Below, piece by piece: positions 4,165 to 53,284 of a DNA stretch of 64,000 nt (position 1 is the first letter of the stretch; each line of letters opens with the position of its first letter). A program made the position numbers and the translations under genes. The notes beneath the pieces were generated by a model. The model worked only from the letters and a program-made list of their open reading frames with translations, was not told the origin of the DNA and did not search any database. The stretch is from Blastocatellia bacterium (GTDB taxonomy: Bacteria > Acidobacteriota > Blastocatellia > UBA7656): contig JBJMGV010000126.1 of assembly GCA_045807725.1 (NCBI GenBank), forward strand, positions 28,802 to 92,801, written 5' to 3'.

Positions 4165-4277
4165 AAAACAGCGGCCAATGACCAGTGGCCAGTGGCCAGT
4201 TTTTGGTTTCAGAGCTTAATCTTGCTTCAATAAAGGATCATGAGAACGACAGCAATTTTACTGGCCACTGGCCACTA

Positions 4278-16153: not shown

Positions 16154-16165
16154 GCTCTCTCCCAA

Positions 16166-16320
16166 TTTTAGATTTTAGATTTTCATGGCTTAGCGCTTCG
16201 CGCCGGCGATTTTGGATTTTAGATTATGGGGAAACAGCATTCAATGAAACCTGAGGCATTCTGCCAATCCAAAATCGGCATCCAAAATCCAAAATTGATG
16301 ATGGCATAGCCCGTGCTTAT
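16166..16320. repeat. Palindromic element with (GATTTTA/GGATTTT) arms
   Basis: tttagattttagatttt...gattttggattttagatt ... aatccaaaatcggcatccaaaatccaaaatt; same family as 2523-2603 and 55751-55865. Confidence 0.6.
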
Positions 16321-19309: not shown

Positions 19310-19437
19310 AATCGCTTCTCGCCATTAAGAATTATGCAGCCATTCACGCCGCTAAGGATTATGCAACCGTTCGCGCCGCTAAGAACTATGCAGCCGTTCG
19401 CGCCGCTAAGGATTATGCAGCCGTTCACGCCGCGTAG
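19310..19437. repeat. 30-bp tandem repeat x4
   Basis: attatgcagccattcacgccgctaagg(a/a)... repeated four times with few substitutions. Confidence 0.75.
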
Positions 19438-19544
19438 CGGCGGGTGAGTTTAGCCAGGCGTTTCAACGCCTGGAAGTCAACGGCGCGGTGATCGCGTCGC
19501 GTCAGCGACGCCTGAATGCCCGCCGATTCAAGCGTCGCTGACGC

Positions 19545-19735
19545 GACGCCATCGCATTATGCTGATAGGTGCAGGCACTAAAGTACCTGCCTAAATTCAT
19601 CTGCCGCTACGCGGCTTTCAATGCAGGCATTGAAATGCCTGCCTAAATTCAATTGCCGCTACGCGGCTTTCGGTGCAGACACTAAAGTGCCTGCTTAAAT
19701 TCATCTGCCGCTACGCGGCTTGTTGAAATGATTTT
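19545..19735. repeat. ~58-bp tandem repeat x3, each unit containing a hairpin
   Basis: ggtgcaggcactaaagtacctgcctaaattcatctgccgctacgcggctttc x3; internal gcaggca-N6-tgcctgc stem. Confidence 0.75.
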
Positions 19736-26246: not shown

Positions 26247-26350
26247 AGTCAGTGGTCAGTGGTCAGTGGTCAGTGGTCAGTGGTTGGCATTCAGTATAAT
26301 GATGATCGCGCTAATAAATCTTACACTGAATACTGCCTACTGCTTCCTGT
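26247..26350. repeat. Heptamer array (GTGGTCA x5) plus AT-richer core
   Basis: agtcagtggtcagtggtcagtggtcagtggtcagtggttggc... followed by ctgcctactg repeats. Confidence 0.5.
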
Positions 26351-26357
26351 CTACTGC

Positions 26358-28634
26358 CTACTTGATTGCATTGGCCGCTCCTCTTTGAAATGTCAGCACG
26401 TAGACGCCGCTTGAAAAGCTGCCGGCGTAAACGCGGTCGCGTTCAAACGGGTCGAACGACAGCGTCCAGACGCGCGTGGTCGGCAGCTCCGCGCCGCCGA
26501 TGGCGTCGAGCCGCTCCCACGAATAGCCTTTGTCGGTCGAGCGGTAGACGCCGCCCTTCGAGTATTCGGCGACCAGCACTTCGTCGGGGTTGGCCGGGTT
26601 GAAGACGACCGACGTGAAGTCGCCCGCCGGCAATCCACCGCCGCGCCGCACCCACGTGCGCCCGCCGTTGGTCGAGCGAAAGAGGTTCTGGTTAGTGCCC
26701 AGCAGAATCGTCGCCGGATCATTGGGCGCTTGCGCGACCGACTTCACCGACATATCACTGGGGCCGCGATCAATGTGCGCCCAGGTCGCGCCGCCGTCTT
26801 CAGAAATGTAGAGGCCCGCCTTTGTGCCGACCAGTATGCGCTTCGGCGTGTCCTTATGCGTCGAGACCGAATAGACGCGCCCATTCGCGTCGTAGCCGAC
26901 GAGGTAGACTTTCTCCCAGCCTTTGCTTTCATCAAAGGTGCGGTAAAGCCCGTCCATCGTCGCCGCCAGCAGCCCGCGCCGGCCTTCGCTGTCGCTGAAG
27001 CTGGTGATGTCGTCCACCTGCTTCGTCAATTCAAACAGCGACGGGCCGAGCGGTTCTGTAGGCTCGACTACTTTAGGCTTCTTCGGCGCGCGCGATGATT
27101 TCGATGACTTCTTTGACCCGCGCGACTTCTGTGCAACCATCACGACCGGCACGGCGCGGTATTGGCCGACGCCTTGCAAAGCGGGCGCGGCAGGCGCGTC
27201 GTTAGCGGCGCGGCGACGGCGCGTCGGCTTCTTCACCGGCTTCTCGGGCTTCGTCGTTTGATTGCCGACGAATGACCAGCTTGCGCCTCGGTCGCTTGAG
27301 CGGAAGACACCGGTGTTCGTGCCCGCATAGATCACGCTCGGGTTGTCGGGCATTTGATAAAAGGCGAACACGTCGCGTGCGCCTAAGCCGCGTGACGACG
27401 ATTGCCACGATTCGCCGCCGTCGCCGGAAACAAAGATGCTGCCGGCGGAGCCATCGTGAAAGACGCTGGCGAGCAAACGCCCGCGCTCCTGCGCGTCGGG
27501 CAGTATCGCCAGAATGTGCCGATGAATGAAGCCGATGTTGGCTTCGGCGAAATCGTCGCCGAGGTTGTTGGATTCGAGCACGCCGTAATCATCCGTAGCA
27601 ATCAGCACGCGCTGTGGCTTGTCGGGCGTGACGATGACCGAACGAATGACGTGGCTCTTCGAGGTAATGAGCATCCAGCGCTTGCCGCCGTCTTTGCTGC
27701 GCCACAGTCCTTCGCTCGTGCCGGCGAAGATGATGTTCGGATTGGTCGGGTGCGGCAACAGGTAATAGGTGCGCCGCGCCGTGAAAGGGATGCCCGGTAT
27801 CTTGTTCCAGTGCTCGCCACCCGTATTCGAGCGATAGATGCCGCTGCACGCGTTCAGATAAACAAGGTCGGGATTGGTCGGATCAACCGAGACGCCGAAG
27901 ATGTCGGAATCATCAATGACGCCGTTGCCCTTATAGCCGGTCTGCTTCCAGGTGACGCCGCCGTCTGTGGTCTTCCAGGGCAGGTGCCACGTGCCGACGT
28001 AAATCTGATTAGGATCGCGCGGGTGTATGGCGATGGACTCGATGTTGTGAATCTCTTTGTCGCCTTCGGGCGAGATGCGCTGCCACGTCTTGCCGGCGTC
28101 GGTCGAGCGCCAGGTTCCGTTCAGCTTCGGGTCGTCGTTGGCGCTGCCGGCCATCACGATGTTGGAATCTGACGGCGCGATAGCCAAGCTACGGACGGAT
28201 AACTTCTTCGTCCCGTCGAGCAGCTTCCAGTGCTCGCCGCCGTCTTCGCTCTTAAAGACGCCGCCGTCCACATCGCGCGCCACCGCCCACGCGCCGACAT
28301 AAAGCGTGCGGCTGTCGTGCGGGTCGATGGCAATGCTGTCTATCGAGAGGCCGCGCTCGCCTATCCCCGGCTTCACCCTGCGCCAAGTACGCGCGCCATC
28401 GGTCGAGCGAAAGAGCTGGCCGTCGCTCGTGCCGAGATAGAGCAGGTTGCTATTGTCGGGCGCAGCCACCAGCGTGCGCACGTCGCCGCCCCACGGGCCG
28501 GTAACTTCCCACTGACGAATCTCTTTCTCGTTTGTAGTGGTAGTTACGTCGTGCGGGCCGTCGGCTCTGGCGGGCACGAGCGACACTGCGAGCGCAAAGA
28601 CTAACGCGAGGAGGGGGAGGTTTCGGATTCTCAT
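26358..28634 (-). CDS. Secreted BNR/Asp-box repeat protein (sortilin/Ycf48-like beta-propeller) with Lys-rich insert
   Basis: Signal peptide; repeated S-x-D-x-G-x-T-W motifs (STDGARTW, SEDGGEHW, STDAGKTW, TTDGGVTW, SKDGGKRW, STNGGRTW...). Confidence 0.8.
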   Translation of the reverse strand: MRIRNLPLLALVFALAVSLVPARADGPHDVTTTTNEKEIRQWEVTGPWGGDVRTLVAAPDNSNLLYLGTSDGQLFRSTDGARTWRRVKPGIGERGLSIDSIAIDPHDSRTLYVGAWAVARDVDGGVFKSEDGGEHWKLLDGTKKLSVRSLAIAPSDSNIVMAGSANDDPKLNGTWRSTDAGKTWQRISPEGDKEIHNIESIAIHPRDPNQIYVGTWHLPWKTTDGGVTWKQTGYKGNGVIDDSDIFGVSVDPTNPDLVYLNACSGIYRSNTGGEHWNKIPGIPFTARRTYYLLPHPTNPNIIFAGTSEGLWRSKDGGKRWMLITSKSHVIRSVIVTPDKPQRVLIATDDYGVLESNNLGDDFAEANIGFIHRHILAILPDAQERGRLLASVFHDGSAGSIFVSGDGGESWQSSSRGLGARDVFAFYQMPDNPSVIYAGTNTGVFRSSDRGASWSFVGNQTTKPEKPVKKPTRRRRAANDAPAAPALQGVGQYRAVPVVMVAQKSRGSKKSSKSSRAPKKPKVVEPTEPLGPSLFELTKQVDDITSFSDSEGRRGLLAATMDGLYRTFDESKGWEKVYLVGYDANGRVYSVSTHKDTPKRILVGTKAGLYISEDGGATWAHIDRGPSDMSVKSVAQAPNDPATILLGTNQNLFRSTNGGRTWVRRGGGLPAGDFTSVVFNPANPDEVLVAEYSKGGVYRSTDKGYSWERLDAIGGAELPTTRVWTLSFDPFERDRVYAGSFSSGVYVLTFQRGAANAIK

Positions 28635-36782: not shown

Positions 36783-36998
36783 CAGAGCGTATCTGAGAAG
36801 CCCTGAAGGGGCGCGATTCAATAGCCCAGCCCAACGGGCTGGGTACACCCAGCGACCATTCGGCAAGCCCTGAAAGGGCGTAATAGGTGATCGGTTATTG
36901 CGCCCTTTCAGGGCTTGGCGGTTAGCCCCGCCGCTCACCCAGGGCGCTGCCCTGGGCTGTCGAATCCCGCCCCTTCAGGGCTTCTCAGATACGCTCTA
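36783..36998. repeat. ~220-bp MITE-like palindromic element, copy A
   Basis: Terminal inverted repeats agagcgtatctgagaagccctgaaggggcg ... cgccccttcagggcttctcagatacgctctatag; internal aagccctgaaagggcg hairpins; about 90% identical to the inverted copy at 53003-53222. Confidence 0.65.
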
Positions 36999-36999
36999 T

Positions 37000-37335
37000 A
37001 GTTCACGATGCAATAGTTGATGCAAGCTCCGTCAGGAGCGCAATGTTTATAGTAACGCGGGCGGTTTAATCTTCAAGCTCCGTCAGGAGCGCGATGTTTA
37101 TAGCCAACGATGCAATAGATCAAACAAGCTCCGTTAGGAGCGCGATGTTCATAGCTCACGATGCCACAGATGATGCAAGCTCCGTTAGGAGCGCAATGTT
37201 TATAGATATGGCAGAAGGATGTGACGAAGCCCCGTAGGGGCGCGATGTTGACATCACGCTCCTGACGGAGCTTGCTTCTTCTATTGCATCGGTAACTATA
37301 AACATTGCGCTCCTGACGGAGCTTGGGGAACTATC
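37000..37335. repeat. ~51-bp tandem repeat array (4-5 units plus inverted units)
   Basis: Unit gatgcaagctccgtcaggagcgcaatgtttatag plus a ~21-bp variable linker; each unit has a gctcc-gtca-ggagc hairpin. Confidence 0.7.
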
Positions 37336-37445
37336 AGCTATCAACTGATCACTGGCCACTAACCAATGACCACTGACAACCGGCCAGTGGCCATTGACAA
37401 CCGGCCACTGACTACTGGCCACTGGCCAGTGGTCACCACTCCTGG
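37336..37445. repeat. (CCAGTGG/CCACTGG)-type heptamer array
   Basis: cactggccactaaccaatgaccactgacaaccggccagtggccattgacaaccggccactgactactggccactggccagtggtcacc. Confidence 0.6.
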
Positions 37446-37505
37446 CACATTCGTTGCTCCTTCACGACTGGCTGAAGCAATTTGCATTGAAAGCGAGCAA
37501 AGTGG

Positions 37506-41139: not shown

Positions 41140-41340
41140 AAACAGGATTCAGGAGTCAGGATTCAGGAGTCAGAAGTCAGAAGAGAGAAGTCAGAAGTCA
41201 GGAGTCAGAATTCAGAATGAATGAGGAAGTCGGCTAACGCCTCTGCCTCTATTCTAACTTCTAAACGCTCCCTTCCTTTTCCATTCTGACTTCTGACTTC
41301 TGACTCCTGTCTTCCTCCCTCTTGTCCCTCTTCACTTCAA
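41140..41340. repeat. Heptamer-array palindrome, (AGTCAGA/AGTCAGG)n ... core ... (TCTGACT)n
   Basis: caggagtcaggattcaggagtcagaagtcagaag...gaagtcagaagtcaggagtcagaattcaga ... ttctgacttctgacttctgactcctg. Confidence 0.6.
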
Positions 41341-48847: not shown

Positions 48848-48935
48848 GGAAGAAAGTGATAAGTGATGAGTGATGAGTAATGAGTGATGAGTAAGAAGCA
48901 TTGAGGGCTGCTCTACACTCATCACTCATCACTGC
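48848..48935. repeat. Heptamer-array palindrome, (GTGATGA)n ... (CTCATCA)n
   Basis: gtgataagtgatgagtgatgagtaatgagtgatgagtaag ... ctacactcatcactcatcactg. Confidence 0.6.
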
Positions 48936-50446: not shown

Positions 50447-50983
50447 ATGGCGGCAACGCGCGGCAAGACGATCTGCTTCATCGATAACGCGAACATCTTC
50501 CACGGCCAGGCCGACAACTGGCGCATCGATTGGGAGAAATTCCAGCGCCTCCTTGAAGAGAAGGGCGAGATATGGCAGACCTACTGCTTCGCGTCTGAAA
50601 CCGACCCGCCCAGCGACGGCGCGACGGCCTTTTATCAATTCCTCAAAGAGAGCCTGCGCTGGGAAGTGCGGCTTTACACGCTCGGCAAGAAGACCGTGCG
50701 TTGCGGCGACTGCGGCCACGAGCACACGACTTACGCCGAGAAGGGCGTTGATGTGGGGCTGGCGACAACGATGCTGATGCTGGCCGTCAATCAAGCCTAC
50801 GACACAGCCATACTGGTCTCAGGCGACCGCGATTACATCGAGACCGTACATCACATCAAGAGCCGCGGCCTGCGCGTCGAAGTCATCTCGTGGCGGGCCG
50901 GCTTGAGCAACGACCTCGAAGCCGAATCCTCCGCGCCCGTCGTCTACCTCGACGACCTGCGGAAGCAGATAGAGAAACAGTGA
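50447..50983 (+). CDS. NYN-domain (LabA-like) protein with Zn-ribbon insertion
   Basis: ...ICFIDNANIF... and ...AILVSGDRDY... NYN motifs; CGDCGHEH insert. Confidence 0.7.
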   Translation: MAATRGKTICFIDNANIFHGQADNWRIDWEKFQRLLEEKGEIWQTYCFASETDPPSDGATAFYQFLKESLRWEVRLYTLGKKTVRCGDCGHEHTTYAEKGVDVGLATTMLMLAVNQAYDTAILVSGDRDYIETVHHIKSRGLRVEVISWRAGLSNDLEAESSAPVVYLDDLRKQIEKQ

Positions 50984-51404
50984 CCAGTGGTCAGTGGTCA
51001 GTGGTCAGTTGATAGTTGATAGTTGACAGTTGATTGTTGATTGTTGTGAGTTGTGAGCGGTGAGTTGATAGTTGTGAGTTGATAGTTTCCCAAGCTCCGT
51101 CAGGAGCGCAATGTTTATAGATATAGCTGAAGGATGTGACGAAGCTCCGTCAGGAGCGAGATGTTTATAGTTACCGATGCAATAGATGATGCAAGCTCCG
51201 TCAGGAGCGGGATGTTGACATTGCGCCCCTACGGGGCTTCGTCCTTTCTATCAGCCATTTCTATAAACAGGTCGTCCCTACGGGACTCACTGGTCACTGG
51301 CAACTCATAACTATCAGCTCACAACTATCAGCTCACAAGTATCACCTATCAACTATCAACTGACCACTGGCCACTAGCCACTAGTCACTGATCACTAACC
51401 ACTG
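50984..51404. repeat. Composite palindromic repeat region: heptamer arrays flanking ~51-bp tandem units
   Basis: (GTGGTCA)n, (GTTGATA/GTTGTGA)n, three caagctccgtcaggagcg...tttatag units, an inverted unit, then mirrored heptamer arrays. Confidence 0.7.
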
Positions 51405-52343
51405 ATGAACGATCTTCTTCACATCAATGAAAGAGTGCGCCGCGCGATAGAGACGAATCGAGCCGTGGTGGCGCTTGAGTCAACCGTGATCGCACACGGC
51501 TTGCCGCGCCCGCTCAATCTCGAAACCGCGCACGCCTGCGAAGCCGCCGTGACGCGTGAAGGCGCAAGTCCGGCGACCATCGGCATCGTCGCCGGGCGAT
51601 TGACGGTCGGGTTGAGTGACGAAGAGGTCGCGCGCTTTGGCGACGGGCAAGCGCCGGACGGCGGCGCGATTGAAAAGGTCGGCTTGAATAACATGGCCGG
51701 CGTCATCGAGCGTCGCGCCTGGGGCGCAACTACCGTAGCCGCGACGATGCGGATTGCCGCGCTTGCCGGCCTGCGAGTCTTTGCCACAGGCGGCATCGGC
51801 GGCATTCATCGCGGCGCGGGCGAAACGTTCGACGTATCCGCAGACCTGACTGCGCTCGGTCGCCTGCCGCTGGTCTGCGTCTGCGCCGGCGCGAAAGCGA
51901 TTCTCGATCTACCCAAGACCGTCGAGTACCTGGAAACGCTCGGTGTGCCGATTGTAGGTTATCGCACAAACGAGTTCCCTGCCTTCTACTCCCCGACGAG
52001 CGGCCTCGGCGTAGACATCAAAGTGGATTCGCCGGAAGAAGCCGCCCGTGTGGCGTTGAATCACTGGCGCACGGGTGGCGCGTCGGCAGTGCTGGTCTGC
52101 GCTCCTGTGCCTGAGCCGCACGCGATGGCTCACGAAGAAGTTGACTGCGCTGTCGAGCAAGCCATCGTCTTAGCCGAACGCAGCGGCATTCGCGGCAAAG
52201 CATTAACGCCTTTCCTGCTGGCCCGCTTGAAAGAGTTGACCGCAGGCCACACGCTCGATGCGAATCGCGCCTTGCTCGTGAATAACGCGGAGATCGCCGC
52301 GCAAATTGCCGTGCATCTGGTCAATCTGTCGCGGCAAGGTTGA
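51405..52343 (+). CDS. psuG: Pseudouridine-5'-phosphate glycosidase
   Basis: ...VVALESTVIAHGLPRP...FATGGIGGIHRG... PsuG signature. Confidence 0.9.
   Translation: MNDLLHINERVRRAIETNRAVVALESTVIAHGLPRPLNLETAHACEAAVTREGASPATIGIVAGRLTVGLSDEEVARFGDGQAPDGGAIEKVGLNNMAGVIERRAWGATTVAATMRIAALAGLRVFATGGIGGIHRGAGETFDVSADLTALGRLPLVCVCAGAKAILDLPKTVEYLETLGVPIVGYRTNEFPAFYSPTSGLGVDIKVDSPEEAARVALNHWRTGGASAVLVCAPVPEPHAMAHEEVDCAVEQAIVLAERSGIRGKALTPFLLARLKELTAGHTLDANRALLVNNAEIAAQIAVHLVNLSRQG

Positions 52344-52917: not shown

Positions 52918-53284
<367 letters not shown>

Follow-up and report, generated by a model that had tools for sequence, protein, structure and literature searches.

The window (the whole stretch of 64,000 nucleotides of DNA from an uncultured Blastocatellia bacterium that was analysed) contains two tandem arrays of a hairpin-forming unit, both in intergenic DNA between co-directional housekeeping genes. 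Array 1 (36997-37325) has a MerR/B12-binding regulator gene and a topoisomerase IB (Top1B) gene on either side, and array 2 (51091-51290) has an NYN-domain gene and the gene for pseudouridine-5'-phosphate glycosidase (psuG). Ten flanking proteins (MerR-B12, Top1B, NYN, PsuG, MGMT and similar) were tested against Pfam, and neither a Cas protein nor a transposase was found among them; the absence of cas genes stated in the preliminary description of this DNA holds for these ten.

Each unit is made up of a 20-21-bp linker, a 5-bp GC-rich hairpin GCTCC-GTYA-GGAGC and a conserved tail, CGNNATGTTTATAG. The general form of the tail is CGNNATGTTT[A/G]TAG, also written ATGTTT[A/G]TAG, and it is conserved and single-stranded. 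The two arrays together hold 12 units and follow one plan, a run of direct units leading to a centre and then to a run of inverted units; the innermost units on either side have a common truncated tail, which forms the centre ATGTTGACAT.

Array 1 comprises four direct units of 51 bp, a variant unit and two inverted ones. A 51-bp tandem array followed by inverted units had been placed at 37000-37335, and Tandem Repeats Finder confirms it at 36997-37205 (period 51, 4.1 copies, 75% matches, score 225). The four direct units there (+ strand) start at 36998, 37049, 37100 and 37151, a spacing of exactly 51 bp, each composed of a linker of 21 bp, then the hairpin GCTCC-GTYA-GGAGC and its tail CGCRATGTTYATAG. 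Occurrences of the 17-mer AAGCTCCGTYAGGAGCG begin on the + strand at 37024, 37075, 37126 and 37177, and on the - strand at 37273 and 37324. The innermost direct unit (37206-37250, + strand) has a B-type linker, a compensated stem, GCCCC-GTA-GGGGC (variant unit GAAGCCCCGTAGGGGCGCGAT at 37226-37246), and the truncated tail that leads into the centre. The inverted units (37251-37325, - strand) have their hairpins at 37258-37271 and 37309-37322, with an inverted A-type linker between them.

Array 2 has three direct units and two diverged inverted units, and Tandem Repeats Finder reports it at 51091-51216 (period 50, 2.5 copies). The array had been described as occupying 51062-51290; it does exist, but begins some 29 bp further right, the sequence at 51062-51090 being heptamer repeat. 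The direct units (51091-51223, + strand) start at 51092, 51142 and 51193 and have B-type and A-type linkers, the third continuing into the centre, while the inverted units (51224-51290, - strand) lie at 51224-51238 and 51273-51287, have the stems GCCCC-TAC-GGGGC and GTCCC-TAC-GGGAC, and are joined by an inverted B-type linker.

The linkers fall into three types, A (..CGATGCAATAGWTSAWRC), B (ATATRGCWGAAGGATGTGACG) and C (TAACGCGGGCGGTTTAATCTT), which recur inside and across both arrays, and the A and B types are also present in an unrelated metagenome locus (L104). The linkers had been called similar to each other, which is accurate within the types. The core pattern AAGCYCC-N4-GGRGCG has nine matches in the window, all within the two arrays, against 0.55 +/- 0.80 in shuffled sequence (none of 100 shuffles reached nine).

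Neighbouring repeats and the MITE

Array 2 lies at the centre of a composite palindrome reported earlier at 50984-51404, the existence of which is confirmed: its arms (50978-51087 and 51296-51405) are 72-79% complementary. The arms consist of heptamer arrays, with CAGTGGT (3.6 copies) and AGTTGAT (11.6 copies) on the left (50984-51087, + strand), beginning at the NYN stop codon, and the complement of these on the right (51296-51405, - strand), ending at the psuG ATG. The whole NYN-psuG spacer has a predicted folding energy of -225 kcal/mol (z = -18.5), and array 1 one of -178 kcal/mol (z = -15.9). To the right of array 1, a heptamer tract of the ACTGACC/CAGTGGC type (37329-37440) forms its own palindrome. 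Array 1 has two weak terminator-like sites in its interior, and no sigma-70 promoter-like site was found at it. A sigma-54-type -24/-12 motif, TGGCACATTCGTTGCT, stands at 37443-37458, directly downstream of array 1 and upstream of the Top1B gene, and is kept in three of three relatives (L095-L097), whichever repeats stand upstream.

Inverted heptamer-repeat arrays fill many intergenic spacers of the window (4169-4276, 16165-16295, 26248-26362, 37344-37431, 41149-41314, 48855-48933, 50985-51087/51296-51405 and 52924-52961/53244-53275) and of three other loci (L091, L093 and L096). The heptamers involved include CAGTGGT, AGTTGAT, TCAGAAG, AGTGATG and AATGATG, and the long hairpins formed by the palindromes occupy the whole interval between the stop codon of the upstream gene and the start codon or promoter of the downstream one. 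Close relatives, at the orthologous sites, either lack the palindrome or have one made of another heptamer, which points to rapid turnover. These palindromes resemble the STRR repeats of cyanobacteria; no literature on heptanucleotide or REP repeats of Acidobacteria or Blastocatellia was found. The heptamers were considered as an obligatory part of the element and rejected, as 18 of the 127 unit clusters have a period-7 array nearby, compared with 5.7% of all bases; this weak proximity probably reflects a shared intergenic location.

A palindromic MITE of 214 bp (36784-36997) abuts array 1 and has perfect 19-bp terminal inverted repeats, AGAGCGTATCTGAGAAGCC. A second copy lies in reverse orientation at 53010-53223, inside an AATGATG/ATTCATC heptamer palindrome and with TATA on both sides. 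The two ends of the first copy are matches to Acido-Lenti-1 (RF01687), at 36799-36843 on the - strand and 36938-36982 on the + strand, scoring 41.0 and 40.9 bits against a covariance-model threshold of 37 bits; they are the two that adjoin array 1 among four matches above threshold in the window. Acido-Lenti-1 is listed in Rfam as a candidate sRNA (Weinberg et al. 2010, PMC2864571). Since these matches are the ends of a palindromic MITE, the family is suggested to be a DNA repeat and not an RNA gene. No literature linking Acido-Lenti-1 to such repeats was found in a search of incomplete coverage.

The covariance model does not match the 51-bp units themselves, either in 36997-37335, even at E <= 10, or in 51091-51290. 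The opposite-strand 3' half of Acido-Lenti-1 (CUA...AU..CG, hairpin, CUU) nevertheless shares the layout of the unit, whereas its 8-bp first hairpin is missing from the 51-bp units, which have a non-pairing linker instead. The MITE ends can be aligned with those of related elements in which a terminal repeat, AGAGCGTGTCT, is combined with a canonical unit, and through these with the array units, so the MITE and the array units are taken to be diverged relatives. This bears out the earlier proposal that the arrays belong to the same mobile system as the MITE-like element. Elsewhere in the window, a 27-bp unit in four copies (19326-19433) adjoins another Acido-Lenti-1 match (19428-19473, - strand), and the same spacer holds 2.9 copies of a 52-bp unit (19570-19721) in which two hairpins and a linker are arranged as in Acido-Lenti-1, without an Rfam call.

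Spread of the unit and covariation of its hairpin

A scan with the unit pattern, using one genome per species, found at least 90 loci, mostly in Pyrinomonadaceae or Blastocatellia MAGs. One MAG alone accounts for 17 contigs and a second for 10, and a complete 6.3-Mb chromosome has four sites. Clear copies of the unit also occur in Ignavibacteria, Candidatus Jettenia, Flavobacteriia, Saprospirales, Verrucomicrobiae and others, and the collected loci contain 301 units. The commonest dispersed form is a palindrome of about 165-190 bp, here written 2+2, with the order unit, linker, unit, centre, inverted unit, inverted linker, inverted unit. Some family members have outer terminal inverted repeats (AGAGCGTGTCT..., of the AGAGCRTGTCTRAAAAG type), often preceded by TNA, whereas the arrays of the window and many Blastocatellia copies are without them. 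Tandem arrays are found in the window, in L053, in L101-L104 and in L110-L115. About ten matches to the capture pattern (L017, L022, L030, L040, L046 and about five others, from Streptomyces, Pseudomonas, Dinoroseobacter, Firmicutes MAGs and others) were rejected as family members; they lack the TATAG tail, fall within what appears to be coding sequence, and are probably fortuitous.

Covariation of the stem was tested on 86 units chosen by their tail alone, with capture-pattern matches excluded, by tail-anchored permutation of the 3' arms. A perfect 5/5 stem was present in 74 of the 86 units, compared with 29.9 +/- 3.3 after shuffling (maximum 41 in 2000 shuffles), and the perfect stems span at least ten Watson-Crick types (GCTCC, GTCCC, GCCCC, ACCCC, GCGCC, GCCGC and others); related copies inflate these counts, but the range of compensated stems is nonetheless plain in the sequences. 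Compensatory variation across genomes shows that the unit hairpin is under selection, as judged from sequence comparison, and with the stable folds it agrees with the earlier description of a structured repeat. As a probe of the functional strand, single stem mismatches were counted, giving eight G.T against four A.C. The tag (TATAG, TGTAG or GGTAG) ends 13-14 nt past the stem, with [A/G]TAG lying about 9 nt from it.

At the gathering threshold, no Rfam family covers the unit in 16 loci from other phyla, the sole match being Flavo-1 elsewhere in one of them (L073). All-against-all clustering of the ORFs in 90 genome loci revealed no recurrent neighbouring protein; the top clusters were histidine kinase, ABC ATPase, amidase and PBP. 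Such clustering missed the transposase described below because most copies of the repeat are gene-less.

The Y1 transposase gene flanked by units

Scanning metagenomes for two consecutive canonical units yielded six loci. In one of these (L103), three full direct units, and a fourth truncated at the contig end, lead straight into an ORF of 157 aa that takes its ATG from the tail of the last unit, and four inverted units follow the stop codon. The protein scores 87.9 bits against Pfam Y1_Tnp and 65.3 bits against NCBIfam transpos_IS200 (cut-off 55). It is not a classical RAYT, since it scores 36.2 bits against NCBIfam REP_Tyr_transpos (RAYT), under the cut-off of 80, and has Y---Q instead of Y---NP. 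It has at least 7,900 relatives in databases, the best 120 of which are 74-99% identical, and some relatives have been named 'REP element-mobilizing transposase RayT' by JGI. The named sources among the relatives listed include Verrucomicrobia and an acidobacterial MAG, and such genes also come from unassigned soil or water metagenomes.

The Y1 gene is flanked by units in all ten loci examined (L103, L105, L107, L110, L053 and L111-L115), which represent five distinct sites. Nine of the ten were chosen through the protein, and one, from Verrucomicrobiae (L053), was captured by the repeat alone; its Y1 protein has 60% identity. Five of the loci (L111-L115, on Verrucomicrobiota metagenome contigs) are copies of one site and were counted as such because they have an identical protein and, in at least three of them, share a downstream WD40-repeat gene. 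Here tandem arrays enclose the Y1 gene, with as many as eight direct and six inverted units spaced 50-52 bp apart, the same period as in the window. The number of units varies between samples that have an identical 155-aa Y1 protein, the direct units downstream numbering about eight in L111 and about six in L112, which looks like array-length polymorphism at an apparently single locus. One Y1 protein occurs on 18 contigs; the gene neighbours agree in both of the places shown, the other 16 having been collapsed as similar, and this, as a hint, is the picture that a single vertically inherited locus would give.

Five Y1 proteins were aligned (153-157 aa, apart from the fifth, which is cut at the locus end to 145 aa), and the H-T-H (HUH) and Y---Q--HH motifs (the latter Y117, Q121, H124, H125) are invariant in all of them. 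No tnpB gene is present in any of the ten Y1 loci. No Y1 gene was detected in the 64-kb window by tblastn, so the cognate enzyme is presumed to be encoded elsewhere in the source organism. When E. coli RayT was used as the phmmer query, no ORF of L001-L097 or of the window matched, the associated Y1 enzyme being too distant from RayT (BLASTP E = 0.27).

Origin of the arrays and relation to known systems

The flanking proteins of the window are 83-93% identical to proteins on syntenic metagenome contigs, which allows the orthologous spacers to be compared. The NYN-psuG spacer is 421 bp in the window, but 27, 59 and 111 bp, with zero units, in relatives with psuG 83-90% identical; the 27-bp spacer has no repeats, the 59-bp spacer has a hairpin from a different heptamer, and the 111-bp spacer has a CAGTGGT heptamer palindrome from which units are absent. 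In the window, the MerR-Top1B spacer measures 727 bp and contains the MITE, 5+2 units and heptamers. Among relatives it is empty at 69 bp, holds a heptamer palindrome alone at 215 bp, and holds heptamers and one basic 2+2 element at 338 bp; the first linker of this last element ends ..GGTTTAATCTT, matching the window linker at 37053-37073. No other units are present in about 60 kb of syntenic DNA of the relatives. Given that units are absent at both orthologous spacers and that one relative has only a 2+2 element at the site of array 1, the arrays are interpreted as recent insertions that then grew. On this comparison of sequences they are lineage-specific, having apparently entered spacers that already held heptamer palindromes and expanded there by 51-bp modules. 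The orthologous series, from empty spacer to heptamer palindrome to 2+2 to 5+2, is a clean natural record of cluster growth.

The window arrays share the architecture of the Y1-gene flanks, minus the gene, and the 2+2 palindrome looks like a Y1 locus from which the gene has been deleted. As the units elsewhere flank an IS200-like Y1 (HUH) transposase gene, often as 51-bp arrays, they are regarded as REP/BIME-like repeats of a REPtron-type system. The arrays are thus best explained, with a probability of roughly 0.78, as gene-less REP-like repeat clusters, comparable to BIMEs and REPINs, that were mobilised in trans by the Y1 enzyme and then grew. Three parts of the earlier interpretation hold, and what it missed is the link to an IS200-like Y1 (HUH) transposase.

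By analogy with the IS200/IS605 and TnpA_REP paradigms, the Y1 enzyme, made from a single gene elsewhere in the genome, would bind the unit hairpin on single-stranded DNA and cut in or beside the tail. Such cutting could move or copy unit-plus-linker modules into intergenic DNA. A 2+2 element would have entered two spacers with pre-existing heptamer palindromes, and the arrays would have grown to 5+2 and 3+2 as 51-bp modules were added, either by the transposase or when units recombined unequally or slipped against one another. If the neighbouring genes, which are co-directional, are affected at all, for instance through a long RNA hairpin between them, this would be a side effect. Several points weigh against this explanation: the 64-kb window has no Y1 gene, the protein is not a classical RAYT, [A/G]TAG does not abut the stem, growth of the arrays by slippage alone needs no transposase, and the outer terminal inverted repeats of some members (AGAGCGTGTCT..., often by TNA) also fit mobilisation by a DDE transposase.

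A rival view is that the units are passengers or binding sites in TIR-bounded MITEs moved by a DDE transposase, for example of the IS5 type with a TNA target, and that the Y1 link is secondary. Many members do begin with terminal inverted repeats of the AGAGCRTGTCTRAAAAG type, commonly with T-N-A before them, and the 214-bp MITE of the window has perfect 19-bp repeats. Such repeats are nevertheless missing from the window arrays and from many Blastocatellia copies, no DDE transposase recurs near the elements, and the covariation of the stem points to a folded single strand and not to a duplex binding site. With units also flanking the Y1 gene at ten of ten loci examined (five distinct sites), the DDE explanation is very unlikely. 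Host cis-elements are another candidate, in which terminators or insulators, mRNA-stabilising hairpins or a tandem small-RNA array would have been amplified by slippage and kept for their function at the flanking genes. The position of both arrays between co-directional genes, their very stable folds (z = -18.5 and -15.9), the two weak terminator-like sites within array 1, the compensatory change in the hairpin and the Rfam listing of the related Acido-Lenti-1 motif as a candidate sRNA (PMC2864571) all agree with such a role. However, relatives whose flanking proteins are 83-90% identical have no arrays in these spacers, both unit orientations occur, a sigma-70 promoter-like site is absent, and the unit is found at unrelated loci, in unrelated phyla and flanking a transposase gene, so that a cis-acting function is an unlikely reason for the arrays. 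The preliminary description had considered a small RNA or protein-binding array; a local role of that kind is unsupported, the arrays being absent from the orthologous spacers of close relatives.

An orphan or degenerate CRISPR with cas genes elsewhere would account for the regular 51-bp period and the repeat of about 30 bp with a small hairpin, features that the arrays do have in common with CRISPR arrays. CRISPR repeats are all direct, however, and each array ends in two inverted units; the linkers are 20-21 bp long and of three recurring types common to both arrays and L104, where unique spacers of about 26-72 bp would be expected; and the arrays lie at palindrome centres. The repeat flanks a Y1 transposase, and the ten flanking proteins tested are housekeeping proteins with no Cas protein among them. 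A CRISPR origin is therefore scarcely credible, and the earlier judgement that this is not a functional CRISPR is upheld by the inverted units, the few short recurring linker types and the housekeeping neighbours. For annotation of the window, removal of a false lead to CRISPR and small RNAs leaves two long structured spacers that are explained as recent mobile-repeat insertions.

The reading preferred here, gene-less clusters mobilised by a Y1 enzyme, places the arrays near several known systems. IS200/IS605 elements and their gene-less derivatives (PATEs and MITEs) similarly have an IS200-type Y1 HUH transposase, subterminal hairpins and no evident target duplication. Unlike those of IS200/IS605, which are one per end on the same strand, the flanking hairpins here are multiple and inverted, and the repeats are dispersed and far outnumber the gene, most units having no linked gene.

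The REPtron concept (REP/BIME with RAYT) and the tandem reiteration of REPs are established (PMC6006769, PMC3733652, PMC3116915). As in the REP/BIME/REPIN-RAYT systems of E. coli and Pseudomonas, the unit is a short, intergenic, multi-copy hairpin repeat with an unpaired conserved tag; it forms inverted doublets and tandem clusters, with copy number varying between relatives, and a small HUH-Y1 gene is flanked by the repeats in a conserved genomic context, here in other genomes. The enzyme, however, has Y---Q--HH (class 1, IS200-type) and not the Y---NP of RAYT, and the stem is just 5 bp. The GT[AG]G tag of REPs abuts the hairpin, while [A/G]TAG here is about 9 nt away. The dominant cluster here has same-orientation units repeating every 51 bp and then inverted units; across several phyla, sequence is conserved in hairpin and protein alike. 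The system is therefore REP-RAYT-like, yet it departs from the classical definition in two respects, the RAYT signature and a tag that abuts the stem.

Y---Q--HH is the signature of TnpA_Y1 subclass 1.2 (Quentin et al. 2018, PMC6006769), which has been reported without IS ends or REPs (PMC6006769). No literature linking subclass 1.2 enzymes to such repeats was found, including after 2018, and as coverage of this search is incomplete, novelty is provisional. Taken together, the observations allow the tentative proposal, with odds a little short of even, of an undescribed REPtron-type system in which an orphan TnpA_Y1 subclass 1.2 enzyme owns a cognate repeat (the 5-bp hairpin with ATGTTT[A/G]TAG), has 51-bp arrays around its gene, and has spread 2+2 elements in intergenic DNA of Acidobacteriota, Verrucomicrobiota, Planctomycetota and Bacteroidota. 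Both hairpin and protein are conserved, the protein with 74-85% identity among the database matches listed and 60% in L053, and on this reading the Acido-Lenti-1 'sRNA' would be a MITE end of the same superfamily. For the window itself the arrays amount to an ordinary mobile-repeat cluster, and the wider value lies in a DNA partner for an orphan transposase clade; linking a widespread and very conserved Y1 clade to a specific hairpin repeat would provide a defined substrate for the biochemistry of single-strand cutting and joining. The enzymes studied here resemble subclass 1.2, to which they are assigned by motif and length, in the invariant Y---Q--HH, a length of about 155 aa and a conserved C-terminal region, and a low copy number is hinted at by the one protein on 18 contigs; unlike those reported so far, their genes are embedded in arrays of hairpin repeats.
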